This document shows, piece by piece, positions 18,311 through 61,650 of a stretch of DNA of 64,000 nt. The notes beneath the pieces are model-generated. The model saw only the letters and a program-made list of their open reading frames with translations, was not told the origin of the DNA and did not search any database. Both the position numbers and the translations under genes were made by a program. Origin of the DNA: Escherichia phage phT4A. The DNA lies in the sequence record NC_055712.1; one strand, 5' to 3'. Each line of letters begins with the position of its first letter. Within the stretch, counting starts at the first letter, position 1.

Positions 18311-18348
18311 AAAAAGCCCTTGACTCCGGTCGGGGGCTTTGTTATATT
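18311..18348 (+). promoter_or_regulatory. stem-loop + sigma70 promoter cassette (PeSL-like)
   Basis: Hairpin AGCCC..GGGGCT containing TTGACT at 18320-18325, 17-nt spacer, TATATT at 18343-18348. Confidence 0.55.
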
Positions 18349-18385
18349 GGGCCTATCGAAACGTAAATCACTAAGAGAATATATT

Positions 18386-18955
18386 ATGACTAGTAGTTAT
18401 CAGAAACACAAAACCCTTATGGCAAACCTGTCCGGTAAACATATCGACGAAGTAAAATCTCTGCTGACAGTAACCGAAGGTTCCCGTTTTGACACAAATC
18501 ACATTATCAAACCTTCTGTGAAGAAAGTACTGAAAGTGATTTACCGACATCCGGTGTATCAGTGCGTTCATATCATGAACAGCAACGCATTTATTTTCGT
18601 ATATAACGAATCCGATGATAAGTGTGTTGGTATTTTCCGAAAACCTAACTTTGAATGCATGAGCGAAGCGGCTGTTGCAACCCCGATCGTTGAAGAATAT
18701 CCGGATTATGTTCAACGCAACATGCGTTATGTGCAATCCCGACTTGATTATGCATACGATTTCAATTCTGACGCGGTAGAAGCGCTGGCGGATATCCTTT
18801 GCAAAAACCAGAAAGATCGTCAAATGACAAAATATCTGACTGACCCAACACCGTCAACAATCCGAATTTCTGTCGAAGTTCCGTTTGAAAATCATTTCAT
18901 GGCGGTTGAAGCACTTGCTAAACTTGGTTTAGAAGTGAAAACAGAAGCCGTTTAA
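18386..18955 (+). CDS. hypothetical protein
   Basis: ORF; start set at MTSSYQKH downstream of the promoter cassette. Confidence 0.4.
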   Translation: MTSSYQKHKTLMANLSGKHIDEVKSLLTVTEGSRFDTNHIIKPSVKKVLKVIYRHPVYQCVHIMNSNAFIFVYNESDDKCVGIFRKPNFECMSEAAVATPIVEEYPDYVQRNMRYVQSRLDYAYDFNSDAVEALADILCKNQKDRQMTKYLTDPTPSTIRISVEVPFENHFMAVEALAKLGLEVKTEAV

Positions 18956-18974
18956 TAGCACTTTTTGTTAAAGA

Positions 18975-19009
18975 AGCCTCTTGCAATGCAGGGGGCTTTT
19001 TTGTATAGT
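18975..19009 (+). promoter_or_regulatory. stem-loop + sigma70 promoter cassette (PeSL-like)
   Basis: TTGCAA at 18981-18986 inside a GCCTC..GGGGGC hairpin, 17-nt spacer, TATAGT at 19004-19009. Confidence 0.55.
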
Positions 19010-19046
19010 GTGTTCATCGAAACGAAACAGACAAAAGGAACATCAC

Positions 19047-19337
19047 ATGAACTTCATCGATATCAACAAAGATTTGGAAGGTAAAAACATCAAACTCGTT
19101 AACCGTGAAATGTTAGAGAGTCTTGGTAACGGTGGCGAAAAATTCAGTGAAGAATTCTATAACAATTTATCGTTGATGACGGTCAAGCGCGTTGATGTTC
19201 AGGGTGGTTCTGGTTGGGTTTCTGCAATTCCGGTTTCCCTTGTAGATCAAGCAACATATGACCCAGTTGCGGATTCATGGGATCTGGAAATGCCGTTGGT
19301 ATTCGAAGAAGTCATGAAGTGTTACGAAATCGCATAA
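19047..19337 (+). CDS. hypothetical protein
   Basis: ORF; start at MNFIDINKD with AAGGAA SD. Confidence 0.4.
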   Translation: MNFIDINKDLEGKNIKLVNREMLESLGNGGEKFSEEFYNNLSLMTVKRVDVQGGSGWVSAIPVSLVDQATYDPVADSWDLEMPLVFEEVMKCYEIA

Positions 19338-19347
19338 GGGTATTATT

Positions 19348-19659
19348 ATGAATAGCGGAAAATTACAAATGAAAGTTAGCGAAGAAGAAGTTAAAGAGCG
19401 GTTATCGGTAGCAAGAAGATTCCTTGAATCTATCGACCCTGATAAACTTGGAAAATGCCCTGATACGATTTGCCTTAATTGTGGGCGTTCTGTTCTTGTT
19501 GGTAAGTGTTGCGATAATCCAAATATAGTTGTGATGGAAAAGGAACAAGTATCCCCCGAAACATGGGATCAGATCCAGGAAATCATTAAAAACCCTCCAG
19601 CGCCAACTAAGAAATTACGTGAATTGATGACAAGGAAAATGAAATATGAGCAAATTTAA
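19348..19659 (+). CDS. hypothetical protein with Cys cluster
   Basis: ORF; CPDTICLNCG...CC motif. Confidence 0.35.
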   Translation: MNSGKLQMKVSEEEVKERLSVARRFLESIDPDKLGKCPDTICLNCGRSVLVGKCCDNPNIVVMEKEQVSPETWDQIQEIIKNPPAPTKKLRELMTRKMKYEQI

Positions 19660-20023
19660 ATTGAGTGCAACCGTTCGCCTTATTCGTTGGAATGGTGAAG
19701 AGATCCGTTATGATGACCCCGAATTCGCCCATGAAATTCTTTCGCATCGTTTGGGATTGAAAAACGCGTCATTGGTTCAAACTGTTAAAACATCAGCAGA
19801 GCCGGAAATTTGGCGTTGTGTTATTCTGGATCTCGATAACAACATTGATTATGATGATCCTAAGAACTATCCTCTTCTGGAAGCACAAGTTGAGAATGCT
19901 CCAGAAGACAGACAGTGTTTTTTGGTTGAGTTACCACGCGAACATTACGAAAACATCATAAAGGCCCGTAAAAAGGTCAATAACAATGTTTTCGATCTCC
20001 ACCTCGGATTGTTTGAGGATTAA
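19646..20023 (+). CDS. hypothetical protein
   Basis: ORF only. Confidence 0.35.
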   Translation: MSKFKLSATVRLIRWNGEEIRYDDPEFAHEILSHRLGLKNASLVQTVKTSAEPEIWRCVILDLDNNIDYDDPKNYPLLEAQVENAPEDRQCFLVELPREHYENIIKARKKVNNNVFDLHLGLFED

Positions 20024-21129: not shown

Positions 21130-21171
21130 AAAAATCCCTCCTAATATATCCTATTTACTAAATAGTAAATA

Positions 21172-21774
21172 ATGACCCAGGTTCAATTTGAGGCAATAAT
21201 GAAAAATAAAACTCTTGATAAATTTATGACTACACGGCTTGAAATCAAGAAGACTAACGTTAAAACCGTTCATCTTCCGGATGGAACAGCCATTGAGATC
21301 CCTAAGATGTCGTATCGTCATTTTGTAAAGATTAAGACTCTGAAAGATGACCCAGTTGCGATCATGCGATTCATCATTGATGACATCAAACCGCGTGAAC
21401 TAACAGCAGCGGAAATTGAATTTGTGTTGATCCATATGTATGCACACAATAACGCTGATTATGCCAATACGCTTAAAGAAATTGGGCTAAATCTTGATGA
21501 CCTCAAAATCTCCGAACCTTGCTATGATTTTACGTTTGACAATGTGCGGTTAGTCTTTGACAAACCCAGCCTGTTAAATGCTCACCTTCCGTTCCTCATC
21601 AAAGAGGCATATGTTGACGGTAAGCCAGTAGAATTAACTGAGGATAAACGAGACGAATTAATTAATTGCCTGTACCGATTCGAATATGATCAGGTATCGC
21701 GTGGTGTCCTCCAGGAAGTATACATTATTCATGAGGGGAAAACCATCAAAGGGCTTAACATCATTGGTGAATGA
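21172..21774 (+). CDS. baseplate hub component, gp28-like by position (tentative)
   Basis: 200-aa ORF immediately upstream of the gp29-like gene. Confidence 0.3.
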   Translation: MTQVQFEAIMKNKTLDKFMTTRLEIKKTNVKTVHLPDGTAIEIPKMSYRHFVKIKTLKDDPVAIMRFIIDDIKPRELTAAEIEFVLIHMYAHNNADYANTLKEIGLNLDDLKISEPCYDFTFDNVRLVFDKPSLLNAHLPFLIKEAYVDGKPVELTEDKRDELINCLYRFEYDQVSRGVLQEVYIIHEGKTIKGLNIIGE

Positions 21775-25508: not shown

Positions 25509-25536
25509 AGGGGCTACGGCCCCTTTTGAGGATCTT

Positions 25537-26831: not shown

Positions 26832-27224
26832 ATGGGTGTAAATCTGAGGTTGCTATATAGCGATATAGAACCTAACATGCAACGAGATTGGAATAATGAC
26901 GTAGCGGCCTCAAAAGGGGCCGCAGCAGTAAGAAATAGTTTGATTGGTATCGTAACCACGATCAAGGGTACACGTCCATTTGATAGTAACTTTGGTTGTG
27001 CAATTAGTGATATGCTGTTTGAGAACATGAACCCTCTGACAGCGGAATCAATTAGAACTTCTATCGTATCTGCGATCCGGACATATGAGCCTAGAGTATA
27101 TAATCTTTCTGTTGAAGTCATTCCACAGTATGATGATAACTCAGTAACAGTAACTATCTATTACAGCATCATTGATGACCCGGATGACGTAGAGCAAATC
27201 AAACTACAGCTTTCCGCATCATAA
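26832..27224 (+). CDS. 25: baseplate wedge subunit gp25
   Basis: Strong match to recalled T4 gp25: LYSDIEP, DWN.DV, GTRPFD..FGC..SD.LFENM.PLTA, YEPR, IPQYDDN, DDPDDVEQIKLQL. Confidence 0.85.
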   Translation: MGVNLRLLYSDIEPNMQRDWNNDVAASKGAAAVRNSLIGIVTTIKGTRPFDSNFGCAISDMLFENMNPLTAESIRTSIVSAIRTYEPRVYNLSVEVIPQYDDNSVTVTIYYSIIDDPDDVEQIKLQLSAS

Positions 27225-27225
27225 C

Positions 27226-27260
27226 AAAAAGCCCCTTCCTTTCGGTTGGGGCTTTCTTTT
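27226..27260. terminator. bidirectional rho-independent terminator
   Basis: GCCCC-ttcctttcggtt-GGGGC hairpin flanked by A-run and T-run, between convergent genes. Confidence 0.6.
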
Positions 27261-27714
27261 AGAATTCAATGAATCCCATTAGTGTTTGATATCGCAATTC
27301 AAACGGGGAGATATAACTTTGCATCTGGTTTTGATCGGATACGATGTAATAATACACCTCATCATTATCATCGTATAGTGCTTCTTTGATGATGCAATAT
27401 CGATCGGTTTCCACGTTCACATAAAGAGTATCCATGTACTTTGTAACTTTGGAACCCTGTGAACTGATTTCACGAATAGCGTTATCTATGAAAAGCGACA
27501 ATGCTTGCATGAAGTTATCAAACTCACCATATTCACAGCCCATAATAGAAATTGCAGTGTATTGGTGCCAGCCTTTGATTGTGTCTCCACGGCGGATCCA
27601 TCCAATTTGTCTACCCCCGATAGATACACACCACACTTTACCAACGGGACTATAGAACCGCACAACTTCTTTTAATAACAGGGACATGATCCCACATTTT
27701 GTATAAGGATTCAT
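27259..27714 (-). CDS. hypothetical protein
   Basis: ORF only. Confidence 0.4.
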   Translation of the reverse strand: MNPYTKCGIMSLLLKEVVRFYSPVGKVWCVSIGGRQIGWIRRGDTIKGWHQYTAISIMGCEYGEFDNFMQALSLFIDNAIREISSQGSKVTKYMDTLYVNVETDRYCIIKEALYDDNDEVYYYIVSDQNQMQSYISPFELRYQTLMGFIEF

Positions 27715-27973: not shown

Positions 27974-28232
27974 GTTTCAGTGTATCCACTTGTAGTTGAA
28001 GTTTAAGAATACAACCTTTCGATATGTTATACAAGTAGTCACTAACGATTTTTGACTTTACCTGATCGTAATCAGAAGATAACGTAATCCAATCATACAT
28101 CGTTTGGTATGATGGAAGATACGTACATTGTTCTTCTTTTGATAACGCTTTAAATGATTGGTAATCGGTTGGAGGTTCCGAAGCAATTGCGGTTGTGGTC
28201 ATAAGACTAAGTGCAAGTAGTAGATATTTCAT
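27948..28232 (-). CDS. hypothetical secreted protein
   Basis: Start set at MKYLLLALSLMTTTAIA (signal-peptide-like); GAGGAA SD. Confidence 0.4.
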   Translation of the reverse strand: MKYLLLALSLMTTTAIASEPPTDYQSFKALSKEEQCTYLPSYQTMYDWITLSSDYDQVKSKIVSDYLYNISKGCILKLQLQVDTLKLEKMERGQ

Positions 28233-28262
28233 AATGTATTCCTCATTGTTTTCGATAGAACC

Positions 28263-28300
28263 AATATAGCAAAAAGCCCCGACCGAAGTCAAGGGCTTTT
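28263..28300 (-). promoter_or_regulatory. stem-loop + sigma70 promoter cassette (PeSL-like)
   Basis: On minus strand: hairpin GCCC..GGGGC containing TTGACT, ~18-nt spacer, TATATT. Confidence 0.5.
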
Positions 28301-28303
28301 TCA

Positions 28304-28588
28304 TCAATGCAAGAAAGATTTCACGTACTGTTCGATCTTTTCACGACATGTATCAACTGAGGTGCTTTCCGCAATTACGGCATGACATAACGCCTCGCCT
28401 CCGACCCAGAAACTCATCATGTACTGAATATCACGACCTTCCATTTCTTTTTGATGCGCTTTGATTCGATCGAAAGCGTTTTCGATTGTTTCAGTAGCAG
28501 TAAGCATTTCGGATTCCCCGTCAACCTCCGCCAGTTCCCCATCGATCATTTCGCTTTCGACTTCTTCCCAGTATACTATCGTTATCAT
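28304..28588 (-). CDS. hypothetical acidic protein
   Basis: ORF only. Confidence 0.35.
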   Translation of the reverse strand: MITIVYWEEVESEMIDGELAEVDGESEMLTATETIENAFDRIKAHQKEMEGRDIQYMMSFWVGGEALCHAVIAESTSVDTCREKIEQYVKSFLH

Positions 28589-48685: not shown

Positions 48686-48716
48686 GTTTTACCTTTAAGG
48701 GGCCAAAGCCCCTTTG

Positions 48717-49112: not shown

Positions 49113-49179
49113 AAATCACCTCTTGTAAAAATACCCTGTTTGGGTACACAGGGTATTTATGGTTTAAGAGGTTCGATAC

Positions 49180-49590
49180 TTAATAATCGTAAAGATCACC
49201 GAAACATTCGTCATACTCGCGTTTACGTTCAATTTGCTCGTTTCTACGATCTTCCATATATGGAGGAAGACGGTTTTCATTGACTTCATCAATGTAAGCC
49301 TGTGCATCCTCTTTTGTTAGAAAGAATGCATGGAAATTGTACCCGTTGTACCCGTTGTACCCGTTCATACTACGATCTTCAAGAGAGAATTCTGTGTGAC
49401 AGTCCCAGTCTTTGTACAGGGTGATACATTTAGCAAACAGCCCAATACCGCGATGAATGTATGGGAATCCAGTAACAATCATCTTGCTACCCATTTCCGC
49501 ATTTTCTCCGTTCACACAGAATACTTCATACATGATCGCGCCTGGTTTAACATCTTTCTTAACAGCACGTTTTTCAAAAGCACTTTTCAT
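49180..49590 (-). CDS. hypothetical protein with YNG tandem repeat
   Basis: ORF containing the 3 x 9-bp repeat. Confidence 0.4.
   Translation of the reverse strand: MKSAFEKRAVKKDVKPGAIMYEVFCVNGENAEMGSKMIVTGFPYIHRGIGLFAKCITLYKDWDCHTEFSLEDRSMNGYNGYNGYNFHAFFLTKEDAQAYIDEVNENRLPPYMEDRRNEQIERKREYDECFGDLYDY
49338..49364. repeat. perfect tandem repeat, 3 x TGTACCCGT
   Basis: Three exact 9-bp copies at 49338-49364 inside the CDS, in frame. Confidence 0.9.
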
Positions 49591-49644
49591 AATATATTCC
49601 TCTCAATTGGTGTAACTACAGATTACTAGTTTAGTTTCTGAATG

Positions 49645-49968
49645 TCAACAAGGTTTATCGTTTTTTGACGGAAAAGTTAGAGTGAACAAACGATCATGAA
49701 GGTTGTCGATCCGTTCACAAGCCTGTTTCAGTATGGTTTTATCACCATCATTTGTTGTTTCAATGCATCCAAGTTCATCGGCGTCAATGTTCACTACATC
49801 GCTCATCAATGAAGCAAACACGTTAACATCAGGATGTAACAGTTCTTCGATTTCGGCCTTCATGCCGTCGTGTTCAGAAAGGATATCAATAATATCACGG
49901 GTTAAATCTCCCTGGTACGGGAACCCTGTTTCTAAATGATTGATGATCCTTTGTGCTTTCGTAATCAT
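49645..49968 (-). CDS. hypothetical protein
   Basis: ORF only. Confidence 0.35.
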   Translation of the reverse strand: MITKAQRIINHLETGFPYQGDLTRDIIDILSEHDGMKAEIEELLHPDVNVFASLMSDVVNIDADELGCIETTNDGDKTILKQACERIDNLHDRLFTLTFPSKNDKPC

Positions 49969-50007
49969 AATTTTACCTACAAAAAAGCCCCTTTCGGGGC
50001 TAGTTAA

Positions 50008-50271
50008 TTAAAGTTCACAGCAACGGCACACACCGTATTTTGTAAATGGAGCATCACCGCTAACGTAGGCCCAGAAATCACATGCTTCTTCGGCAGTATC
50101 GAAGATTGCGGCATCATAGAACCCGTGGGCTTCGTTACCGTTCTCATCGATGAAAACCGGAGTCCAGATATTAGGATTGAAGCAATCGTCAACAACAACC
50201 CAACCTTCTTTATCTTTCATTGCTTCTTTGTTGGCTTCGATGTGAGCTAAGATTTCGTTCATGATGTCCAT
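50008..50271 (-). CDS. hypothetical protein
   Basis: ORF only. Confidence 0.35.
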   Translation of the reverse strand: MDIMNEILAHIEANKEAMKDKEGWVVVDDCFNPNIWTPVFIDENGNEAHGFYDAAIFDTAEEACDFWAYVSGDAPFTKYGVCRCCEL

Positions 50272-50340
50272 TTTTCTCTCCTAAAGTGTGTTTCGTTTCT
50301 ACAGGGCTATAGTCTCATAACCCCGTATCTACGTCAACAC

Positions 50341-50601
50341 TTATTTGAAGCGAATTGTGCTATTTTTGAAAAATAGTCCAGAGCACACAGCACCTTCAAT
50401 TTTCACCCCTGTAGGGCTTTTAGCAACGAACCCTGTTGCGTAGGTGTCTTTCTCATCACATGCGAACCAGGCGTGGCCTGTGTACGTGATATCGCTAAAC
50501 CCGTTAGCAGTCAGAATACGTTCGGCTTCTTTCTCATCGGTGCATCCGGATTGTGCTAAAACGACAATAACGACTAACACCAAAGCAATAATATATTTCA
50601 T
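50341..50601 (-). CDS. putative lipoprotein
   Basis: Signal peptide with lipobox LAQSGC. Confidence 0.45.
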   Translation of the reverse strand: MKYIIALVLVVIVVLAQSGCTDEKEAERILTANGFSDITYTGHAWFACDEKDTYATGFVAKSPTGVKIEGAVCSGLFFKNSTIRFK

Positions 50602-50602
50602 G

Positions 50603-51034
50603 TTAAACTCTTTTTAAGTTGGTTTTACTGGCTTCAATCCAGTACACGGGATCAGAATAGTTACCGCACATACCCAGTAACACAGTTGTACATCCTAAAT
50701 GATCGGAAGGTCTCAATCCATCAGGATGAAAAGGCAATTCGTTAACACCGATACTGGTAGCAAAAAGAGCACCTCCAGTACTGTAAAATGTTTTGATATG
50801 ATCGTATGCATCATCAGGCCACTGAAAACGATAAGTTTTATTGTCAATGGTTACTGTATACATATCATATTCCGTAAACAACGGATCTTTTCCTTGTGTT
50901 GCCCCATACAGAGCGCCGCGCCATTCAACCAGATTTGCTTCAATGTCGCTTACACAAATTTCGTTACCCATACGCAAATCATGAAGGATCCCTTCAATGG
51001 TACGAATAGCCCCACTAAGTTCATTAGTTAACAT
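50603..51034 (-). CDS. hypothetical protein
   Basis: ORF only. Confidence 0.35.
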   Translation of the reverse strand: MLTNELSGAIRTIEGILHDLRMGNEICVSDIEANLVEWRGALYGATQGKDPLFTEYDMYTVTIDNKTYRFQWPDDAYDHIKTFYSTGGALFATSIGVNELPFHPDGLRPSDHLGCTTVLLGMCGNYSDPVYWIEASKTNLKRV

Positions 51035-51214
51035 AGAGTTTCCTTTAAATCGGTTTAATGGTTTTCAGGTGTAGTTTAGCATAAGAAGAACCAAATGAGT
51101 TACCATTATGATCAAACTTATGTTCTTCACTCTTCCAGTATTTCCCCGATTTCATCAAGGGTATACGCTTCTTACCTGCTGTTATCGTTTCAACCATTCC
51201 GGTATGAGTGAATG

Positions 51215-51562
51215 TCATGATATACCCTCTTCTTTCAGCACTTCCCAGATCAGTTTATCAAGGTGCATCAGGTTCCACATAACCGAATCATAAGAACCCA
51301 GTGAGCGGGAGTAAATCACTCCCCATGAACGATAACTTTTCTGGAATGCTTCTGCACTATCTACATCATACGGCATATCATCACCGGATGCAATCAAAAG
51401 TTTAAGGATCATCAGACTGTTCAGAAGTTTTGAACTAGCGTCTTGTGCTTGTACTTTTGCACAATAATTTTCAATAATCGCTTTTGCCTTTGGTTCGGTG
51501 ATGCGTCCATTTTTGCATCGCTCTTTGTACACATACATAAGTTCATCGATTATTTCTTGCAT
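51215..51562 (-). CDS. hypothetical protein
   Basis: ORF only. Confidence 0.35.
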   Translation of the reverse strand: MQEIIDELMYVYKERCKNGRITEPKAKAIIENYCAKVQAQDASSKLLNSLMILKLLIASGDDMPYDVDSAEAFQKSYRSWGVIYSRSLGSYDSVMWNLMHLDKLIWEVLKEEGIS

Positions 51563-51896
51563 ACATTCTTTCCTTCTGTTCTGTGCTCATGCCATACAAC
51601 TGAGAGCGTATACGGTCTTGTATACGACGCGTTTCGTTTTGCATCAGTTGGTTTGAAAGAATCAAATCGACCACCGCGCCGCGAACTTTCCATAGATAAT
51701 CAATCATCGCCATATCTTCATCAGTATGGAAACCCTTCGCATCACATTCATAGATAATGCTTTGCCTTTCCGCCATTGCCATTTCTGCTGTCGCCGGAGT
51801 AGCCAGAGAATATTCATACTTCTCGATCAATGATTCCAGTGTACGTGGTTTTACGGGAATGTCAACAGTTATTGGACGAATCATATACAGCCCCAC
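51543..51896 (-). CDS. hypothetical protein
   Basis: ORF only. Confidence 0.35.
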   Translation of the reverse strand: MGLYMIRPITVDIPVKPRTLESLIEKYEYSLATPATAEMAMAERQSIIYECDAKGFHTDEDMAMIDYLWKVRGAVVDLILSNQLMQNETRRIQDRIRSQLYGMSTEQKERMYARNNR

Positions 51897-52177
51897 TTAT
51901 CACCATCTGCTTTAATCTGTAAATTAGCCAGGAATGAAAACATAATATCACAGTTGCTTTCGATTAGATAGCGATATTTTAATACGGTACTTACCTCTTC
52001 CGGTTCTACCGTAGTGACCTTAATGTCTTTAGCACAAAGATCATAATCGTTACAGTACCCGTCAATATCCATAAGCGTTTTGTTTTCATCTGGATATAAT
52101 TCCAGCAAATACGCATCTTCATCAGTTACCAGCGCAACTATCCGGTTGCGCCTTGTGTTATAGGTTAAGATCTTCAT
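51881..52177 (-). CDS. hypothetical protein
   Basis: ORF only. Confidence 0.35.
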   Translation of the reverse strand: MKILTYNTRRNRIVALVTDEDAYLLELYPDENKTLMDIDGYCNDYDLCAKDIKVTTVEPEEVSTVLKYRYLIESNCDIMFSFLANLQIKADGDKWGCI

Positions 52178-53328
52178 TTCAATTCCACCGCGTATACATC
52201 CAATTCAGGGGCTTTGTGTACGCGCATATCTTTACCACATACAGCATAAGCCGGACAGTTACGGCAACCATTATGATCCTTATTACCGATCAATTCCTGA
52301 CGGAATTTCTTAGTTTTCGGATGTTCCCAGATATCTTTGATAAAGTCACTGGCTTCCAGTACGTTAAGCCCTTCTGACCATCCACCCTCGACCCAACGTT
52401 CAGTAAAGGAACAAGGGAAGAATTCACCCTTCTCGTTGATGTACGAGCTAAACATAGTTGCTTCGCAATCTTCCGCGTACTGTTTGTATTGTTCAAAATT
52501 TTCATGCCCTTCCATAGCCTCTACAAAGGCCGGAGCGGAACAGGAATCAAAACCGAACCCTACACCGGATTCAAGGCAATAATCTACCAGCGCTTTATAC
52601 TGCTCGCGTGTAACGGTATCCCAGTTCTTCCCACGACCTTTTTGTTTCAGACCCAGGAATACGATCGCGTTAACTTGTTTCAAGCGCGGATCATTCTTTA
52701 CAGCATCAACCACGTTAAACGCGTCATCATAGGTTTTAGAGCTAACCATGAAATGAAGGTTGATTTGCTGTTGTCCGGCTTCTGCAAGATTAGCCACTGA
52801 ATTAAACGCTACATCGAATCCAGCATGTTTGTATACTGATACCGCAACAGCCCCAGCAACAGCCGCTAAACGCGCTGCAACGTCTTTTGATACATCAGCA
52901 ATGGTAAGGTTCGGCACAATGCCTTTAGAACGCGCATAGGCCATCATATCAAACATATCAGGGTTTGTTTGTCCCTGTGCATCAGCACCGAGGGCGCATT
53001 GAGTCAGCCAGGGCATTTTGTCGATGATTTTGGTGAAGGTGGCAAGATCCATGTTGAACCCGTTCGGGTTATTGGACTTGTAGCAGAACCCGCAGAGTTT
53101 ACCCGCTGGCCCGTTGCATTTGGTAGTGATCTCGATATCGAGGATAAAAGGAAAATGACTATAAATAGGATCGTCAGCAGGAGTTTTTCCCCAAGTCATC
53201 ATATGACCTGTTTTCATATCAAAATTAAAATTAACCTCTTCGGAACGATAGATTTTCTTTCCTTTCGCTTCCAGTAGAAGTCCAACAGGCGTTTTGATAT
53301 GTTTGGCGTTTACTTTAACGTGTCTCAT
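52174..53328 (-). CDS. cysteine-rich putative Fe-S protein (radical SAM/SPASM-like, non-canonical spacing)
   Basis: Cys triad C-x7-C-x2-C (TKCNGPAGKLCGFCY) and C-terminal CRNCPAYAVC (CxxCx5C); start set at MRHVKV. Confidence 0.35.
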   Translation of the reverse strand: MRHVKVNAKHIKTPVGLLLEAKGKKIYRSEEVNFNFDMKTGHMMTWGKTPADDPIYSHFPFILDIEITTKCNGPAGKLCGFCYKSNNPNGFNMDLATFTKIIDKMPWLTQCALGADAQGQTNPDMFDMMAYARSKGIVPNLTIADVSKDVAARLAAVAGAVAVSVYKHAGFDVAFNSVANLAEAGQQQINLHFMVSSKTYDDAFNVVDAVKNDPRLKQVNAIVFLGLKQKGRGKNWDTVTREQYKALVDYCLESGVGFGFDSCSAPAFVEAMEGHENFEQYKQYAEDCEATMFSSYINEKGEFFPCSFTERWVEGGWSEGLNVLEASDFIKDIWEHPKTKKFRQELIGNKDHNGCRNCPAYAVCGKDMRVHKAPELDVYAVELK

Positions 53329-53340
53329 AGGAACCTCATA

Positions 53341-54069
53341 ATGTATTACGTTTACAGAATCACGAATGTTATAGAGAACAAGCACTATTATGGATCAAGA
53401 AAACCTAAAAAGTCAATGCTTGCTTCCGACGATTTAGGGAAACACTATTTCAGTAGTTCCCGTGATAGTCATTTCATCCAGGATCAGAAGGAAAATCCAG
53501 GACACTACAAATATAAAATAATCGTATCTGGGTTGTCAAGGGAAAAAGCGATGAAACTTGAGAAAAGGTTACACGAAATCTACAAGGTGGACAAGAACCC
53601 ACATTTTTATAACAAACACATACACAACAGCATTGATTTTTCATGTACGCCAGAAACAGGAAAGAAGATTTCTCAAACACATCAGAAATACGCAGCAAAG
53701 AAAATCTCAGAATCCCATAAAAGGCGATTCAAGGAAGGTATTGCATCACACAAAGGAGAGAACAACCCACGATACAACGACCATCGGTCTTATGAAGAGA
53801 TACACGGAGAGGAAAGAGCGGAAGCTATACGTAAAGCGCAATCTGAATCAAGAAGTGGAAAAGGCAATTCCCGCGCGGTTATGTGGAGATTTACTTCCCC
53901 TACTGGAGAAGAATTTTTAGTTGAAGGAGAATGTAAAAAGTTTTGCAAAGACAGAAATATTTCCATGCGCAAACTGAAAACATATTTTGGTGAAGTCATC
54001 ACAACATGTGATAAACCCTACGATATCTCTAAGAATACCGTAGGATGGAAATTAGAAAAGATTATTTGA
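53341..54069 (+). CDS. GIY-YIG homing endonuclease (Seg-like)
   Basis: N-terminal YYVYRITNVIENKHYYGSRK is a GIY-YIG motif; NUMOD-like segments (ETGKKISQTHQ, GENNPRYN); sole plus-strand gene within a minus-strand array. Confidence 0.8.
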   Translation: MYYVYRITNVIENKHYYGSRKPKKSMLASDDLGKHYFSSSRDSHFIQDQKENPGHYKYKIIVSGLSREKAMKLEKRLHEIYKVDKNPHFYNKHIHNSIDFSCTPETGKKISQTHQKYAAKKISESHKRRFKEGIASHKGENNPRYNDHRSYEEIHGEERAEAIRKAQSESRSGKGNSRAVMWRFTSPTGEEFLVEGECKKFCKDRNISMRKLKTYFGEVITTCDKPYDISKNTVGWKLEKII

Positions 54070-54316
54070 ATCTTCTTTTACGTTCGTCAGCCAGTTCTTT
54101 TTTGTACGTTTTGATGTACTTCCCGTTAAGGATGCGAAGCTGTTGGAAAACCTTGTTGCACAAAGCACGTTTCGCTTTGTATTCAGGCGTATTGCGGATT
54201 GATTCGATCGTCATCCCCATTTCATTTTTAGGGTACGCGCTCAACTCCCTGCCGATCTCTCTGTGCCAGTTGCTTAACTGATCACGCTGTGCTTTGTACT
54301 CTTCAAAAGTTAACAT
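54062..54316 (-). CDS. hypothetical protein
   Basis: ORF only. Confidence 0.35.
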   Translation of the reverse strand: MLTFEEYKAQRDQLSNWHREIGRELSAYPKNEMGMTIESIRNTPEYKAKRALCNKVFQQLRILNGKYIKTYKKELADERKRRFK

Positions 54317-54382
54317 AACAATCTCCGGTTTCGTTTCTATGTGTGTAAGGTATCATTACCCTACACACAACGCAAGCGATTT

Positions 54383-54583
54383 TTATTTTCCGTAAAGAAC
54401 ACAACATTTTTTATATTTTTCACGGGCTTTTTCTTCATTACTAAAGGAAACTCCCATTCCAAAATCAGAACCTTCGTAAGTAACATCCCACGATTCATAC
54501 CCATCTTCCGAATAATAGGAAAGTGTTATTTTACGATCTTCAAGAACAAGTTGTTCAACAACAATATCAATTTCAGTAGTCAT
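54383..54583 (-). CDS. hypothetical protein
   Basis: ORF only. Confidence 0.3.
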   Translation of the reverse strand: MTTEIDIVVEQLVLEDRKITLSYYSEDGYESWDVTYEGSDFGMGVSFSNEEKAREKYKKCCVLYGK

Positions 54584-54722
54584 AGTTCATTTCCATAATC
54601 TTTTGCTGCATCTTCGGGGGTTGCGTCCAGTCGATAAAGCTCAACGGCTAACGGACTGGGTTTGATTTCGCGGTTCAGGATCTCACTGATACCGCGAAGG
54701 AATTCGATATAAGGACGGAATC

Positions 54723-54974
54723 TCATTTGATACGTACCGCGTTAAAAGCCTGGTTGCGCAGTTCATAAGCCTGTTCAAGCTGTTCAGTAGTGAACAGAGG
54801 ACTATCAGTGTTAGTGGTGAAACTGCAAATGGTTTTGTTGTCGGCGTTGACTTCTTCGACAACGATTTCATAACCCCAGATCCCGCTGTACTCACATTTC
54901 ACGTTCCGGTACTTGATGTAAACTGCTGCAACATCTTCTTTTTTGTAGTTCCGGCTTTTGTAGATGATTTCCAT
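54723..54974 (-). CDS. hypothetical protein
   Basis: ORF only. Confidence 0.35.
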   Translation of the reverse strand: MEIIYKSRNYKKEDVAAVYIKYRNVKCEYSGIWGYEIVVEEVNADNKTICSFTTNTDSPLFTTEQLEQAYELRNQAFNAVRIK

Positions 54975-55045
54975 GATTTCCTCCTTCGTTTCGATGTGTG
55001 TACAATAACAGATCAGGGTTATCGAGTTTTAGCAATTTGTGCTAA

Positions 55046-55324
55046 TTATGCCATTTTCTTAGCGATTTTCCAGGAGGCTTTGAACGCCGGAACGTCTTCA
55101 ATATCAATCCAGAAACCAGATCCGAAACCATCACTATAGCAAGGGCAACCGTCGCAGTAGTTTTCCCAGGTCATCACTTCACCACCAACAGAAGCACCAG
55201 TTTCCATAGCACGTAATGCATCTTCAACTTTTTCCAGTTTTTCGGCGTTGTCGTCGTAAATGACAAAGTACCATTTACCGTTGTATTCGTTACCAAGTTT
55301 GATAGCTTCGCGAACAAGTTTCAT
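55046..55324 (-). CDS. hypothetical protein
   Basis: Start set at MKLVREAIK, downstream of a promoter cassette with AAGGAAA SD. Confidence 0.4.
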   Translation of the reverse strand: MKLVREAIKLGNEYNGKWYFVIYDDNAEKLEKVEDALRAMETGASVGGEVMTWENYCDGCPCYSDGFGSGFWIDIEDVPAFKASWKIAKKMA

Positions 55325-55362
55325 GATGATTTCCTTTTTGTCTGTTTCGTTTCTATGTGTGT

Positions 55363-55400
55363 AATATAACAAAACCCCTCACCATTGGCAAGGGGTTTTT
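55363..55400 (-). promoter_or_regulatory. stem-loop + sigma70 promoter cassette (PeSL-like)
   Basis: Minus strand: hairpin CCCCTTGCCAATGGTGAGGGG carrying TTGCCA, 17-nt spacer, TATATT, then conserved leader ACACACATAGAAACGAAACAG. Confidence 0.55.
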
Positions 55401-55407
55401 GCAAAAA

Positions 55408-55668
55408 TTATCGTTTGATTGGGGTATTATCTATAACCCGTTGAATTTCCGAACGCATCGTAGAATACTGGCACAATTCGGTAAGCGCCCGATCCAGGTG
55501 CATCATAGCGTAAGAAAACTCTTTTCCGCATTTGTCGCATCGAGCGTATAAATGTAAATGGATGCGCCCGATCCCATCTACCTGACTATATTTCTTGAAT
55601 ATGTAAGGTTTTGCACCTCGATAGCCAGTAGCTTCATGCTTACACTCTCGTTTTTTGAACCATGACAT
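55408..55668 (-). CDS. hypothetical protein
   Basis: ORF only. Confidence 0.35.
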   Translation of the reverse strand: MSWFKKRECKHEATGYRGAKPYIFKKYSQVDGIGRIHLHLYARCDKCGKEFSYAMMHLDRALTELCQYSTMRSEIQRVIDNTPIKR

Positions 55669-56243
55669 TAATAATATCCTTGTACGTTGAAGCGGTCACA
55701 CAACAATCTACGTGTTTGGTTAGTATCGCTTTGGATAGAATGCAACATAGCGCTGAACATGTTTAGGTTATTTTGCATCATTTCCGCGCTCATGAGAACT
55801 TCCATACGCGCACGTAAGCGTTTATTTTCTTCTTCCAACTCAACCATACGGTCATATGCTTTGATGCGCTCTAAGGGCATATCAGGACGCTCTTTGAGTA
55901 CGCGAGCACGTTCAACCTCACAAGCATGATTTGCTTTCCAGTGGTTCGATTCCGCTTCAAATTTATTAAGGCGGCGGATCTCTTCAACCATCTTTTTGAT
56001 CATGTGTGGATCCATCATGTCGATGAATTTCATCAGGCAATTGGATTTTGTTTTGTTGTCAGCACCAGACCAAGACGAATTATACGTAACGGTAAACGTG
56101 CGGCCCATTTCATCAACAACCCCGATCTTGTTATCATCGGTGATTGTAGCCGCCCATTTATCCCGCATGGCTGTACAGGTTCCGCTGGCGACACTATGCA
56201 ACTTGTTTAATGTTGCATCATCAAATACAATTTCATCACTCAT
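55668..56243 (-). CDS. hypothetical protein
   Basis: ORF only. Confidence 0.4.
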   Translation of the reverse strand: MSDEIVFDDATLNKLHSVASGTCTAMRDKWAATITDDNKIGVVDEMGRTFTVTYNSSWSGADNKTKSNCLMKFIDMMDPHMIKKMVEEIRRLNKFEAESNHWKANHACEVERARVLKERPDMPLERIKAYDRMVELEEENKRLRARMEVLMSAEMMQNNLNMFSAMLHSIQSDTNQTRRLLCDRFNVQGYY

Positions 56244-56250
56244 ATATGCC

Positions 56251-56649
56251 TCACATAGATTTCAAAATACGCAGAAGTGCGTTAGTAAAGATATCAGGAA
56301 CACAACCACCAAACAACTTATGATTCATCAGCGCTAATTTCATGCTGTGATTTTCAGTATATCGCCCGTTATGGATCCCCCAGGCAACGACATTACCAGG
56401 TTCATGAATAACTAAGTTAGTGAGAGTAACGGTCATGCGCTCTTTATCATTGATAGAGAATGAATAGCAGTAACCGGATCCGATGTCGCCGTAAAGGTTA
56501 AGGTCTTTCAATTTCCCTTGCTCATGCAAGCGTTTCATATGAACTGCACATGCATGATTAATGGTCATTTCGTCATCCCTAGCCCAATCATCAATACCAG
56601 AGGTATAACGAATATTGAAATAGTTAGTCAGTTCATTTGATACGCTCAT
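56251..56649 (-). CDS. hypothetical protein
   Basis: Start set at MSVSNELT with GTGAGG SD. Confidence 0.35.
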   Translation of the reverse strand: MSVSNELTNYFNIRYTSGIDDWARDDEMTINHACAVHMKRLHEQGKLKDLNLYGDIGSGYCYSFSINDKERMTVTLTNLVIHEPGNVVAWGIHNGRYTENHSMKLALMNHKLFGGCVPDIFTNALLRILKSM

Positions 56650-56827
56650 TAGAAACCTCACTTTTATAAAATTCTTTACCAGTCCCATTACAGCTACTGC
56701 ATTTGGGGGAACGGTTGCTATCATACCGCCCCGATCCGTTACATGCAACACATTTCCTTAATTTCCAGCCATACACGAACCTCATATAATAATCAGTTCG
56801 TGCGGCCTTGCGTTCGTGGAAATTCAT
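56633..56827 (-). CDS. small zinc-finger protein (DnaJ-type CxxCxGxG repeats)
   Basis: CVACNGSG and CSSCNGTG. Confidence 0.4.
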   Translation of the reverse strand: MNFHERKAARTDYYMRFVYGWKLRKCVACNGSGRYDSNRSPKCSSCNGTGKEFYKSEVSNERIK

Positions 56828-56967
56828 TCGATTTCTACCGAGTAACCTTCTTTACGTTTTTGGTCAGCGAAATTTCTTGCGCCTCCCCAATCGTAACAGG
56901 TTCTACGACCAACTTCTGAATCATTATGAAACCAAATCACGGTATATCGCTTTCCCATAATAACCTC

Positions 56968-57171
56968 TTAAACTTTGTTGTAAACCTGAACCAACCACAT
57001 TTCGATGTTAGGCGCGTAAGTAACGTTTACCTTATGCATTGTGCGGTATTTGTAAGCGGCTTTGTATGCATCGAGTTCAGTCGGAACACAGAAAGAGAAA
57101 CCGTTGTCATAGCGTTCTGCGTTAGAAACTTCACAACCAACTACAGCGGCAATATTTTTGTTCATGTTCAT
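56968..57171 (-). CDS. hypothetical protein
   Basis: Start set at MNMNKNIAAV downstream of a promoter cassette. Confidence 0.35.
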   Translation of the reverse strand: MNMNKNIAAVVGCEVSNAERYDNGFSFCVPTELDAYKAAYKYRTMHKVNVTYAPNIEMWLVQVYNKV

Positions 57172-57207
57172 GATGTTTTCCTTTCTCTGTTTCGTTTCGA
57201 TGTGTGT

Positions 57208-57245
57208 AATATAACAAAGCCCCTGCACTAATGCAAGGGCTTTTT
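57208..57245 (-). promoter_or_regulatory. stem-loop + sigma70 promoter cassette (PeSL-like)
   Basis: Minus strand: hairpin GCCCTTGCATTAGTGCAGGGGC carrying TTGCAT, 17-nt spacer, TATATT, then leader ACACACATCGAAACGAAACAG. Confidence 0.55.
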
Positions 57246-57247
57246 GA

Positions 57248-58162
57248 TTATTTTGGTAATTTTTCGATTGTTGCTTTCAACTCATTGATTTTATTAAAGA
57301 GTTCATCGCTATATTTCATCAACTCACTACGGCGTTTTTCGGCCCACTTGATCAGGAATTCAGGAGAATCTACACCATACGTGTAACCTTCTGCACTCAG
57401 TTGAATACGAGCACGGGAACCATAATCAACAGAACTTTGTTCAATGAGAAACTTAACCGCATCAAGCAGGGCTAAATCTTCATGACTTACCATGATTCCT
57501 TCTGCCTTTGGAAGATCCACAACTTCATCCTGAATGAGTTCACGGCGGGTTGTTTCTTCCAGTGTTTCATGATTCTGGATCATCGTTTCGACCGGATCCT
57601 TTGCCACGGCTGGTTTGTTTTCACCTACTTCTTCCAAAAACATCAAAATCCATCCAGGAATTTTAGTCCGGAAAGAACTTTGTACTTCACTGGTGCATGA
57701 ATTTCCCAGAATGTGGATCGCGTTACCATGCATATCAGCTTTATTGATATAGATAACGTTCTGCTGTTCCTGTCGGTTGCTACCATAAGAAAGGAAGCGG
57801 CGTAACGATGTGTTATGACCATACTTCCCTAAATCGATTTCAGCCAGGCAATCAATGATCCCACGGTTAGAAACCTTGTAACGCTTACCCTGTTTGAAAA
57901 ATAACGATTCTTCCAGGTGAGTAGGGGTAAACTCTTCATAAAGAACATAGAATTCTTTAGGAATTTTGCGCTGAACCAGACTCAGTTTACAATTATTAGA
58001 AGGAACAATAACAGAGTGAATGTTTCCTTCGGTATCACACATAGCTTGCATTACTTGCGGATAGTAAAGATGGTCTTTCTTGCAAGTATAGCTATGGATA
58101 CGACTCTGACGTTTTTTGAAGTACCATTTACCAGTTTCAAAAGGCGCTGTTGTAAAATTCAT
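57248..58162 (-). CDS. hypothetical protein
   Basis: 304-aa ORF. Confidence 0.4.
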   Translation of the reverse strand: MNFTTAPFETGKWYFKKRQSRIHSYTCKKDHLYYPQVMQAMCDTEGNIHSVIVPSNNCKLSLVQRKIPKEFYVLYEEFTPTHLEESLFFKQGKRYKVSNRGIIDCLAEIDLGKYGHNTSLRRFLSYGSNRQEQQNVIYINKADMHGNAIHILGNSCTSEVQSSFRTKIPGWILMFLEEVGENKPAVAKDPVETMIQNHETLEETTRRELIQDEVVDLPKAEGIMVSHEDLALLDAVKFLIEQSSVDYGSRARIQLSAEGYTYGVDSPEFLIKWAEKRRSELMKYSDELFNKINELKATIEKLPK

Positions 58163-59009: not shown

Positions 59010-59037
59010 AATATGATCCTCAAAGGGGCCGAAGCCC

Positions 59038-59295: not shown

Positions 59296-59296
59296 A

Positions 59297-59680: not shown

Positions 59681-59690
59681 GATATATTTC

Positions 59691-60098
59691 TCATCTTGCT
59701 AAAATTTTAGGCAGTAGTTGCCCCATCGTTTTACGTGCATGTGACGGAATCTGTGATACTGGGACATATTTGAAATCATCCATTTCACGTATAGTCCGTC
59801 CGTTCTTAACGAAAGTGGATGCACAATAGCATTCTTCCGCTACTGGGTAATCTTGCCCTACATAGAGAAATAAAGCAAGGTTTTTTGTTTTCGTGTAATC
59901 GAGAACACCCAGGCTAACCAATTCCTCCGCGAACACTTCAAATCCTGTTTCTTCAAAGCATTCACGGATCGCCGCGTCAATATGAGTTTCGCCCTTTTCA
60001 ACATGCCCCTTCGGAATATCCCAATGGGGCGTTTCAGTGGCATGGCCCATCAACACGGCACCATCTTTAATAAAGATAATACCCGCTGATAGTTCCAT
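59691..60098 (-). CDS. Nudix hydrolase (second copy)
   Basis: Nudix box GHVEKGETHIDAAIRECFEETG. Confidence 0.7.
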   Translation of the reverse strand: MELSAGIIFIKDGAVLMGHATETPHWDIPKGHVEKGETHIDAAIRECFEETGFEVFAEELVSLGVLDYTKTKNLALFLYVGQDYPVAEECYCASTFVKNGRTIREMDDFKYVPVSQIPSHARKTMGQLLPKILAR

Positions 60099-60344
60099 TT
60101 ATTCACCTTCAAAAGCGTTATCAAATGCTTCAAGTGCTTTGTTAGCGCGAGCACTGGCTTTTGTCACACCAGCAGAAAGGTTTTCGAAGAAAGTATGTTT
60201 CCACACTTCGCGGCGACTGGATTCATGTTCCAGACTGTTTTTGTGATCACCGCGAATCTGTTCTTCCATGTCATAACGGTACAGATCGAGTTCTGCGTTT
60301 AATTTCTGTTCTAATGCCTGTGCAAATACATGTTCAATATTCAT
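60099..60344 (-). CDS. hypothetical protein
   Basis: ORF only. Confidence 0.35.
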   Translation of the reverse strand: MNIEHVFAQALEQKLNAELDLYRYDMEEQIRGDHKNSLEHESSRREVWKHTFFENLSAGVTKASARANKALEAFDNAFEGE

Positions 60345-60592
60345 TTTGTATAGCCTATTTCAGATTTAAGGTTTTCGAGGGTGGAGTGATAAACAACATT
60401 CCCTTCGTGTCGAGTATACCATACTTTTCCGTTCTGGTTACACTCATTCATTACATTTTCATCTAAACCAGGGATCGGCTTCATGCTGGGAGAAAACGCG
60501 ATAGACATCATTTGTTCCGCACTATCAGCAAACCCACAAGGGAAAACAGATCCAGTTGGTTTATCAAGATACATCAACTCTACTTTAGCCAT
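60341..60592 (-). CDS. hypothetical protein
   Basis: Start set at MAKVELMY. Confidence 0.3.
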   Translation of the reverse strand: MAKVELMYLDKPTGSVFPCGFADSAEQMMSIAFSPSMKPIPGLDENVMNECNQNGKVWYTRHEGNVVYHSTLENLKSEIGYTK

Positions 60593-60878
60593 AGATTTCT
60601 TCGAAATCCTCACAATCAGGCAAATACGTTTCACAGAAGGTGCAAAGCGTAAAGAATGCAGGTTGACGAATACCAGGATTATCCGGTAGATACATCCAGA
60701 AGGTGTTAGCAAACACGATGAATGTTTTCAGGTTTTCGGTGGTAATTTCGCTAACACCATCATACCCGGATTGATTGATCGCGCGTTGCAGTGGCACCTC
60801 GTACTGTTCGCAATAGTCGGCATAATGATCGCTTGTTACAAGGCCATTAGCCATTTTAATCAAATCGACGATTTTCAT
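60585..60878 (-). CDS. hypothetical protein
   Basis: ORF only. Confidence 0.35.
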   Translation of the reverse strand: MKIVDLIKMANGLVTSDHYADYCEQYEVPLQRAINQSGYDGVSEITTENLKTFIVFANTFWMYLPDNPGIRQPAFFTLCTFCETYLPDCEDFEEIYG

Positions 60879-61267
60879 GATTTTACATATTCCACTTTAA
60901 CAGGTTTTGCAACAAATTTATCTTTGGTGCGCCCATGACCATTACACAGGTCACATTCTTTGTTGAAATCTTTCATATCTTCGACCCATCCAGAATCTGG
61001 CAACCCAGACGGATATGCGTTATAACGAATGGTTTCATAACCTTTTCCGTTGCATTTCGGGCAAACATGAGGACGTTCTTTTTTAGCAGACTCTGCCAGT
61101 TCGCGAAGGGTGGTAGAACTACCATAAGCCCGACACATGTTTTCAAAGTCTTTTAAAGTCATTCTATAAACATCAATGACGTTATATTTTTTGCCGGATG
61201 GTTTAGCCATAATATATTTCTCACTTAAAGAATTTTTTGATGAAAGAGATAGCAAGGCCGATACCAA
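60875..61267 (-). CDS. zinc-finger protein (DnaJ-type CxxCxGxG repeats)
   Basis: CPKCNGKG and CDLCNGHG. Confidence 0.4.
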   Translation of the reverse strand: MVSALLSLSSKNSLSEKYIMAKPSGKKYNVIDVYRMTLKDFENMCRAYGSSTTLRELAESAKKERPHVCPKCNGKGYETIRYNAYPSGLPDSGWVEDMKDFNKECDLCNGHGRTKDKFVAKPVKVEYVKS

Positions 61268-61450
61268 AGAAAATTAAGTAACCTTTTCCGTCACCGTGCG
61301 CCAAAACATAGAGTGAGCTGCCGTATGCGATGAGTTCTGCGATGTTCATTAAGTTTCTCATGATATCCTCCTTTTTCTATATTAAGTATCTTACCATAAT
61401 ATAAACCAAAGTCAACAACAAAGTTTTATCAACCCACTTATCACCAGTCA

Positions 61451-61591
61451 TTAGTAATCCCCTACAGGTTGAGACGCCGCAACACTCAGGATCTTGAAAG
61501 TGCAATTGTTCCATTCACAATAAGTTTTTGCGCAATGAACACTTCCTTTCATAACAAACCCGTTTGAGAAAATTAACCAGTAAAGTTTCAT
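61451..61591 (-). CDS. small hypothetical protein
   Basis: Start set at MKLYWLIF with GGAGG SD, downstream of a promoter cassette. Confidence 0.3.
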   Translation of the reverse strand: MKLYWLIFSNGFVMKGSVHCAKTYCEWNNCTFKILSVAASQPVGDY

Positions 61592-61618
61592 GATAGCCTC
61601 CTTTGTTTCGACAAGGCC

Positions 61619-61650
61619 AATATAACAAAGCCCCTGCACGAATGCAAGGG
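61619..61650 (-). promoter_or_regulatory. stem-loop + sigma70 promoter cassette (PeSL-like)
   Basis: Minus strand: hairpin GCCCTTGCATTCGTGCAGGGGC carrying TTGCAT, 17-nt spacer, TATATT. Confidence 0.55.

Follow-up and report, generated by a model that had tools for sequence, protein, structure and literature searches.

Promoter-early stem-loop (PeSL) cassettes are known in the T4-like phages RB49/phi1, PST/T4 and nt-1/KVP40 (PMC2839356, PMC4122927), and five subclasses are defined by the position of the stem-loop (Arbiol 2010, PMC2839356; Comeau 2014, PMC4122927). We analyzed a 64,000-nucleotide stretch of Escherichia phage phT4A (NC_055712.1), referred to here as the window, in which a repeat of ~80 bases is present in eight copies, every one occupying an entire gene spacer. 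These repeats are, with high probability, composite intrinsic-terminator/sigma-70 early-promoter cassettes of the PeSL type, of the subclass in which the stem-loop overlaps the -35 box. The element is a real, non-random and conserved regulatory cassette of a kind already described. Added here are the composite reading, covariation of the hairpin, indels bounded by cassettes, a negative test of the hotspot idea and the recurrence of the fused layout in unrelated phages.

A sequence-only reading of this DNA had likened the repeats to PeSLs, and the architecture fits the published definition feature by feature. Shared are an intergenic repeat of ~80-100 nt, an AT-rich tract, sigma-70-like boxes 17 nt apart and a stable G/C stem-loop, which overlaps the -35 box as in one of the five subclasses. 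The 5' end has the upstream stop codon, the 3' end a ribosome site with ATG. The repeats occur where the genome varies, in front of small genes of unknown function; some sister-phage indels are bounded by two copies, and degraded 'half' copies occur. The cassettes appear to have every PeSL feature that can be read from sequence. Differences include the lineage, here the RB43-like genus Slopekvirus, and the stem, which is C-rich then G-rich and is extended by an A-run and a T-run to give full canonical terminator geometry. In RB49/phi1, the stem-loop is mostly placed between the two boxes or across the -10 box. Here the -35 boxes are weaker (TTGCAT, TTGCGT), compensated by a TGn from the T-run, and an A/C-rich leader is common to most copies. 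Mini-circles, as well as promoter and terminator activity in lacZ reporters, have been demonstrated for RB49/phi1; for the present cassettes both activities are predicted. Breakpoint enrichment over ordinary gene junctions was not found here. Three phage papers in the searchable literature use the term PeSL, and none of them concerns Klebsiella phages.

The same sequences, at homologous sites, are included in both lists published for phages KP15 and KP27, as 'putative host promoters' and as rho-independent terminators predicted with ARNold (Maciejewska et al. 2017, PMC5219037, Suppl. Tables S2/S3); AAAAAGCCCTTGACTCCGGTCGGGGGCTTTGTTATATT is listed as promoter and GCCCTTGACTCCGGTCGGGGGC as terminator. 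The KP27 RefSeq record (NC_020080) has overlapping promoter and terminator features at cassette homologues. In contrast to the composite reading, promoters and terminators are kept in the paper as separate lists, with no mention of stem-loops, PeSLs, a shared leader or cassette-bounded indels, and some copies are labelled 'middle promoter'. The early-promoter consensus of the RB43 lineage has G at -33, G or C at -36 and an A-rich segment from -40 to -44 (Nolan et al. 2006, PMC1524935). The RB43 rki promoter, with boxes TTGACA and TAAAGT, gives an early transcript by northern blot (Perrody et al. 2012, PMC3486835), early timing being shown for this one RB43 promoter. The cassettes agree with RB43 early promoters in these consensus positions, the UP-like A-rich tract, the TAnnnT -10 box and a location upstream of novel open reading frames (ORFs); the RB43 papers treat promoters and terminators apart, and hairpin overlap is unreported. 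Lambdoid 'morons' are also small accessory ORFs with their own promoter and terminator, gained and lost as a module. Here, however, the terminator of one unit is fused to the promoter of the next in a single repeat, and the ORFs share the base composition of the rest of the genome.

By megablast against GenBank phages, the window is 98-99% identical to Klebsiella myoviruses belonging to Slopekvirus, a genus of the family Straboviridae; vB_KpnM-VAC66, Miro, KP27 and KP15 are among the many matches. A second identity band, at ~80-82%, comprises RB43/RB16-like phages of Enterobacter, Citrobacter, Cronobacter and Escherichia. The genes face right up to ~20 kb and again between 21.2 and 27.2 kb, whereas those between 27.3 and 64 kb face left. 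Six of the eight cassettes belong to this leftward block at 27-64 kb, which is made up of small hypothetical genes and is covered by sister phages to only 60-97%, and the remaining two stand after DNA ligase. All eight downstream genes are small (46-189 amino acids) and of unknown function.

On the transcribed strand, a cassette reads upstream stop codon, A4-6 run, G/CCCC, TTGnnn, loop, complementary arm, GGGGC, TTT(T/G)T(T), -10 hexamer, leader, ribosome site and ATG, with 0-20 nt between the upstream stop codon and the element. The hairpin stem is 12-13 bp, with RNA folding energies of -17 to -21 kcal/mol and z-scores of -4 to -7 against shuffles for the eight copies. A G/C-rich hairpin and then a U-rich tract thus follow a stop codon, the geometry of a canonical intrinsic terminator. 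The loop is UNCG-like in five copies (TTCG in three, TCCG and TTCT in one each). The -35 boxes consist of TTG followed by ACT, CAT, CAA, CGT or CCA, and the -10 hexamers are TATATT, TATTAT or TATAGT. Spacing between them is 17 nt in seven cassettes and 18 nt in one (TTG at 28292), in keeping with the 17-18 nt first proposed. The same proposal had put the -35 hexamer in the loop or the 3' arm of the hairpin; the loop was correct, but the arm is the other one, the hexamer being made up of 5' arm and loop with its TTG paired in the 5' arm. A TGn extended -10 directly precedes the -10 box in five of the eight, its G being the one that breaks up the terminator T-run, and an A5 run is present at -40 to -45 in all eight.

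The distance from -10 box to ATG is 35-45 nt, with a ribosome site of GGAG/AGGA type. Most cassettes have in common an A/C-rich leader of 30-45 nt after the -10 box (ACACACATCGAAACGAAACAG..AAGGAA), located at 57201-57172, 55356-55325 and 19016-19046, with half copies at 34010-33985, 55020-54990, 54345-54320 and 50300-50285. Multiple alignment bore out the shared leader noted earlier, although the string given for it then, 'GTGTGTAATATAACAAA', is the reverse complement of TTTGTTATATTACACAC. Transcription start sites are predicted near 18355, 19016, 28256, 37900, 44614, 55356, 57201 and 61612.

Two cassettes are on the plus strand. Cassette 1 (18308-18388) stands between the DNA ligase stop codon (18307-18309) and a 189-amino-acid gene of unknown function (ATG 18386). 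It comprises the A-run, the hairpin AAAGCCCTTGAC-TCCG-GTCGGGGGCTTT, -35 box TTGACT (18320-18325), TGn and -10 box TATATT (18343-18348), with the predicted start at ~18355. Cassette 2 (18956-19049) contains hairpin AAGCCTCTTGCA..TGCAGGGGGCTT, -35 box TTGCAA (18981-18986), -10 box TATAGT (19004-19009) and leader GTGTTCATCGAAACGAAACAGACAAAAGGAACATCAC, and ends at ATG 19047.

The other six are on the minus strand. The hairpin of cassette 3 (28230-28306) has a one-base bulge and a UUCG loop; TTGACT (28292-28287), the 18-nt spacer and TGn plus TATATT (28268-28263) lead to ATG 28232 of a 94-amino-acid gene. Cassette 4 (37868-37952) has hairpin GCCCTTGCG-TTCT-CGTGAGGGC with boxes TTGCGT (37935-37930) and TATTAT (37912-37907) ahead of a 64-amino-acid gene (ATG 37870), and at its homologous site in KP27 promoter and terminator features overlap. 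In cassette 5 (44587-44664), a UUCG-loop hairpin is combined with TTGACT (44649-44644) and TATTAT (44626-44621) before a 48-amino-acid DUF5484 gene (ATG 44592). Cassette 6 (55322-55407) precedes a 92-amino-acid DUF5417 gene (ATG 55324) and consists of hairpin CCCCTTGCC-AAT-GGTGAGGGG, TTGCCA (55391-55386), TGn plus TATATT (55368-55363) and leader ACACACATAGAAACGAAACAGACAAAAAGGAAATC. Hairpin GCCCTTGCA-TTAG-TGCAGGGGC and leader ACACACATCGAAACGAAACAGAGAAAGGAAAACATC are found in cassette 7 (57169-57250), with TTGCAT at 57236-57231, TGn plus TATATT at 57213-57208 and ATG 57171 of a 67-amino-acid gene. The same arms flank a TTCG loop (GCCCTTGCA-TTCG-TGCAGGGGC) in cassette 8 (61589-61660), where TTGCAT (61647-61642) and TGn plus TATATT (61624-61619) stand before a 46-amino-acid gene (ATG 61591).

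All eight elements of the sequence-only reading are present at the positions it gave. An objective scan required TTGNNN and TANNNT separated by 16-18 nt and TTG paired as 5' arm; in addition, the segment between -12 and the -10 box had to fold in RNAfold at ≤-12 kcal/mol. It returned exactly the 8 sites and one weak match inside a gene (63474, minus strand, -13.9 kcal/mol), whereas 40 dinucleotide shuffles averaged 0.5 matches and never exceeded 3. An earlier scan demanding perfect stems recovered no more than 3 of the 8 copies, amid noise and hardly more often than in random sequence; the RNAfold-based scan took its place. A covariance model built from six copies found the seventh (28300) at E=5e-7. 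An additional base in its stem left the eighth (18975) with a weak score of 16.6 bits. The three top calls of an independent terminator scan were cassettes. No Rfam family matched the element in a search of the window.

With the covariance model, cassettes were found at orthologous positions in every Slopekvirus locus fetched, and five were also present in Enterobacter phage BHU20, a phage ~80% identical to the window. Protein-anchored retrieval from IMG/VR had yielded just two loci, and annotated GenBank phage records were taken instead. Pairwise alignment with BHU20 showed a conserved block from A-run to ATG and immediate divergence in the tail of the upstream gene. BHU20, whose genes are ~80% identical, has exactly the leader of the 57245 copy. 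At the 44660 copy, the -35 box TTGACT is replaced by TTGCAA in BHU20 and the 3' arm shifts in step, most of the stem being retained. Ends of high-scoring segment pairs fall at cassette edges in BHU20 (28299, 37944, 44587, 55400, 57263), which is suggestive; at 77-82% identity such ends are too noisy and were therefore not counted as evidence.

Covariation was assessed on 46 distinct 35-mers from an exact-pattern scan of IMG/VR (AARCCCTTG, 10 free bases, RGGGYTTT, 2 free bases, TANNNT). The pattern scan returned 88 stretches, about half of them in RB43-like genomes of 140-180 kb (KP15 8, RB16 5, Lw1 4, CfP1 3, RB43 1, plus metagenomic relatives) and the rest in unrelated phages. The pattern itself fixes the outer stem, TTG and TANNNT, and therefore only the inner pairs provide an unbiased test; the four stem pairs left free were canonical in 89-98% of the variants, in a set that mixes orthologues, paralogues and unrelated or convergent phages. 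Stem pairing was seen in 97.4% of cells compared to 89.0% in shuffles, and two-sided changes in 38 cells compared to 10.4 (0 of 500 shuffles reached the observed value in either case). Pairing fell to ≤66% once the partner was slid. U-G wobble pairs were present at three stem positions in 23, 16 and 17 of the 46 sequences. Because of such pairs, the sense strand of the window cassettes folds 3-10 kcal/mol better than the antisense strand. Compensatory changes, frequent U-G pairs and this strand asymmetry together favor a coding-strand RNA hairpin over a DNA palindrome.

The same fused design occurs in Enterococcus siphophages of ~41 kb and PMBT2 type (locus L015, 7249-7283, with ~20 similar IMG/VR loci; GenBank MT627482 and NC_042101), as AAAACCCTTGACTTATGTTAGGGGTTTTGTTATTAT with a strong ribosome site behind it. 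The recurrence points to convergent use of a -35-containing hairpin. Five IMG/VR contigs of 28-166 kb carry AAAACCCTTGACTTCGGTTGAGGGTTTTTGTATATT; these contigs had no match in the GenBank phage collection.

Comparison of the window with nine close relatives, N runs left out, gave 29 rearrangement events, 3 of them at the eight cassettes (P=0.029 against uniform positions). Three indels are bounded by cassette repeats and show the topology of the PeSL shuffling model, with junction repeats of 19-36 nt, which partly supports the earlier suggestion of recombination hotspots. An excess is supported only against uniform positions. As hotspots the cassettes are weakly supported, because they are not enriched over ordinary gene junctions (3/29, P=0.67 against any gene junction). 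Most rearrangements involve homing endonucleases or blocks without a cassette. Cassettes are 70-91% identical across 64-83 nt, and uninterrupted matches span only 7-25 nt.

At cassette 18975, Miro and p4515 hold ~590 extra bases with three small ORFs (Miro 96-98). In Miro these ORFs are flanked by two elements: the left one is a copy identical to the window hairpin and -10 box, and the right one is a hairpin-less TGGTATATT promoter with the window leader. Cassette 2 of the window is a chimera of these two Miro elements, with 34 nt of junction homology (18996-19029). At cassette 55400, a 361-bp indel relative to phage KLB10 corresponds to one extra 333-bp ORF, which sits between a full cassette and a hairpin-less promoter with leader; junction homology is 36 nt (55341-55376). 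At cassette 44660, four relatives have an extra 396-bp ORF directly after the cassette (387-bp indel), with the 19-nt junction repeat GAGGAATACATTATGAGCG at 44586-44604. A similar ORF start follows the orthologous cassette in BHU20 and cassettes of the same hairpin type in CfP1, Lw1 and RB16, and the window state at 44660 is therefore probably a deletion. A fourth clean indel, of 194 bp at 33654-33675, has a plain GCCCCGAAAGGGGC terminator as its junction repeat.

Independently of the cassettes, presence or absence of HNH/AP2-type homing-endonuclease ORFs (34046-34574, 47681-48717, 7715-8306) accounts for several of the largest differences that set the window apart from sister phages. A 44-amino-acid ORF (56826-56957, minus strand; ~150 bp, 56828-56977) is missing from all five relatives covering the site, and no cassette flanks it. 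In phage Earwig_ER32, ~8.9 kb of the window (49171-58040) is replaced by ~2 kb, and a number of further relatives show, between 49171 and ~52120, an allele block too diverged for megablast. The left breakpoint common to these, 49171, falls in a spacer with the plain terminator ACCCTGTGTACCCAAACAGGGT.

The composite reading has several points against it. Three -35 boxes (TTGCAT in two, TTGCGT in one) share no more than 3 of 6 positions with the TTGACA consensus. The U-tract is broken (UUUGUUAUAUU), and termination may therefore be partial. A generic sigma-70 consensus scan of the region gave 49 matches against 46.2 expected, the level of chance, so the hexamers alone prove little; the promoter case is built on the fixed register, on conservation and on context, not on how good the hexamers are. 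The literature search found no Slopekvirus transcript mapping. The bases fixed by the covariation pattern, the mixed origin of that set and the lack of breakpoint enrichment belong here too.

The weak boxes, the chance-level matches and the state of the transcript literature also favor the best-surviving alternative, namely that the repeats are rho-independent terminators only, with TTG and TAnnnT as by-products of a GCCCTTG..GGGC stem and a T/A-rich tail and with the downstream genes read by leak-through; the Miro annotators indeed marked them solely as terminators. An inventory of all window spacers of ≥25 nt makes this unlikely. It places the eight cassettes as one tight subclass of a wider set that includes ~15 plain tetraloop terminators (e.g. 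GGGGC-TTCG/GAAA-GCCCC plus T-run), which have neither promoter box and directly abut the next ribosome site. A plain bidirectional terminator between convergent genes (27223-27266) serves as internal control: its A-run, GCCCC..GGGGC stem and T-run match those of the cassettes, yet it has neither TTG nor -10 box. Terminators of this genome therefore do not automatically come with TTG, 17 nt and TAnnnT. The cassettes, in contrast, keep their 17-18 nt spacing, with TGn in five and the A-tract in all, and their layout fits the RB43 early-promoter consensus. They also carry a conserved 30-40 nt leader after the -10 box, needless for a pure terminator, and -10 box and leader persist in hairpin-less copies.

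In middle promoters of the MotA type, the Mot box (a/t)(a/t)(a/t)TGCTTtA has its centre at -30 and lies 11-13 nt before the -10 box, and the phage has a motA gene. Were the cassettes of this type, they would be active only once phage early proteins appear. In the KP27 RefSeq record (NC_020080), the counterparts of cassettes 37950, 57245 and 61650 bear the label 'putative middle promoter; discovered using MEME' (locus L004, 10907-10935, 28901-28929 and 33312-33340), and five of the eight -35 boxes start with TTGC, loosely like TGCTT. Yet the boxes are TTGAC or TTGCn at the 17-nt spacing of sigma-70, there is no TGCTT box among the eight, and the same sequences are 'putative host promoters' in the published KP15/KP27 supplement. 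Both a motA orthologue and a middle-promoter consensus are reported absent from the RB43 lineage (PMC1524935, PMC3486835); this absence, reported for RB43, argues against the KP27 label. That label looks unfounded, and middle-promoter function is highly improbable.

Equally improbable are promoters with a DNA-level palindrome (cruciform or protein-binding operator) in place of an RNA terminator, for although the palindrome overlaps the -35 box and spacer, where an operator would act, and the element is nearly symmetric through A-run and T-run, the frequent U-G wobbles would be mismatches in a cruciform and on the less stably folding antisense strand, the loop is free to vary and is often of UNCG type, the U-tract always comes after the stem, and the stop codon of the upstream gene lies just before it. 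A mobile repeat resembling miniature inverted-repeat transposable elements or repetitive extragenic palindromes was rejected: the sites are orthologous across genera, the repeat always fills a spacer along the direction of transcription, and there are no target duplications.

The inventory also contains related composites, of which the first three are on the minus strand. At 39227-39274, the 3' arm of hairpin AAAGCCCCC-TCTT-TGGGGGCTT enters the -35 box TTGACA (39254-39249), followed after a 16-nt spacer by TATAAT (39232-39227); the homologous site in KP27 is annotated as a consensus promoter. At 45326-45360, TTGCAT (45360-45355) and TATTAT (45337-45332) are 17 nt apart and a GGGG..CCCC hairpin with T-run lies over the -10 box, fitting the PeSL subclass 'stem-loop over -10'. 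At 54347-54375, hairpin TGTGTGTAGG..CCTTACACACA is over the -10 box of TTGCGT, 17 nt, TACCTT, with leader ACACACATAGAAACGAAAC as in the cassettes. On the plus strand, at 9422-9455, hairpin GTGGGTA..TACCCAC covers the -10 box of TTGACA (9422-9427), a 16-nt spacer and TAAAGT (9444-9449), the boxes of the RB43 rki early promoter (PMC3486835). From 13675, a terminator is followed by a separate promoter (TTGACT, 17-nt spacer, TATAGT). Two degraded 'half' cassettes without hairpin are on the minus strand, one at 54975-55045 (-10-like TATTGT and leader ACACACATCGAAACGAAGGAGG) and one at 33980-34037 (TATAGT and leader GAAACGAAACTGACAAAAGGAACAT), which adjoins the homing-endonuclease indel 34046-34574.

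Near-identical plain terminators form a second repeat family, GGGGC-T(T/A)CG-GCCCC or GCCCC-GAAA-GGGGC plus T-run (4527-4545, 25515-25532, 59015-59032, 62840-62858 and others). The divergent spacer between gp27-like and gp28-like baseplate genes (21130-21198) has T4-late-promoter-like motifs (CTAAATAGTAAATA) in an AT-rich background. The sole Rfam match of the window is a tRNA-Met at 11409-11485, placed on the plus strand by ARAGORN and Rfam; the Miro GenBank record has the opposite strand (L001, 11405-11481), probably an annotation error. Three 100-nt N runs are present (6055-6154, 9163-9262 and 36941-37040). At the last, relatives have ~880 bp against the 100 in the window, and real sequence, possibly a homing-endonuclease-type insert, may therefore be hidden or different there.

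For the composite cassettes, we infer the course of termination, initiation, early timing and recombination from sequence as follows. The transcript from the upstream gene would fold a 12-13 bp hairpin from A-run, GCCC, TTGnn, loop, complementary arm and GGGGC, and would end in the U-rich tract that on DNA is promoter spacer. On DNA, the A-run would act as an UP-like tract, the TTGnnn of 5' arm and loop as -35 box, the 3' arm and T-run as the 17-nt spacer, and TATATT or TATTAT as -10 box. Host sigma-70 RNA polymerase would restart ~7 nt downstream of the -10 box, and the new mRNA would therefore carry no hairpin, starting with the A/C-rich leader, the ribosome site and the ATG of the small gene. 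Through this fused stop and restart, each cassette would insulate the adjoining early transcription units. Since the ~80-nt cassettes are 70-91% identical and co-oriented, they may occasionally act as substrates of homologous recombination, adding or removing the ORFs between copies.

A bolder version is rather unlikely, namely that the cassette is more than a terminator plus a promoter. The leader could then act in cis as an RNA signal in its own right, for instance by enhancing translation or as target of a post-transcriptional regulator (early phage or host); the terminating polymerase, with the promoter right on the site of termination, could start again on the spot without coming off the DNA; and the geometry in Enterococcus phages would reflect convergent selection for that coupling.

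The composite cassettes correct the public-record labels 'middle promoter' and 'terminator only'. Bases are heavily reused, the A-run as UP tract and stem, TTG as -35 box and stem, and the T-run as U-tract, spacer and TGn, which makes the cassette a natural example for designing insulated synthetic expression units. With regard to recombination, cassette repeats bound some ORF gains and losses, no oftener than other gene junctions do. For the window, the cassettes give a compact map of early transcription units with eight predicted start sites and eight predicted 3' ends, and they extend the PeSL concept to the Slopekvirus/RB43-like branch, phages widely used as Klebsiella therapy candidates.

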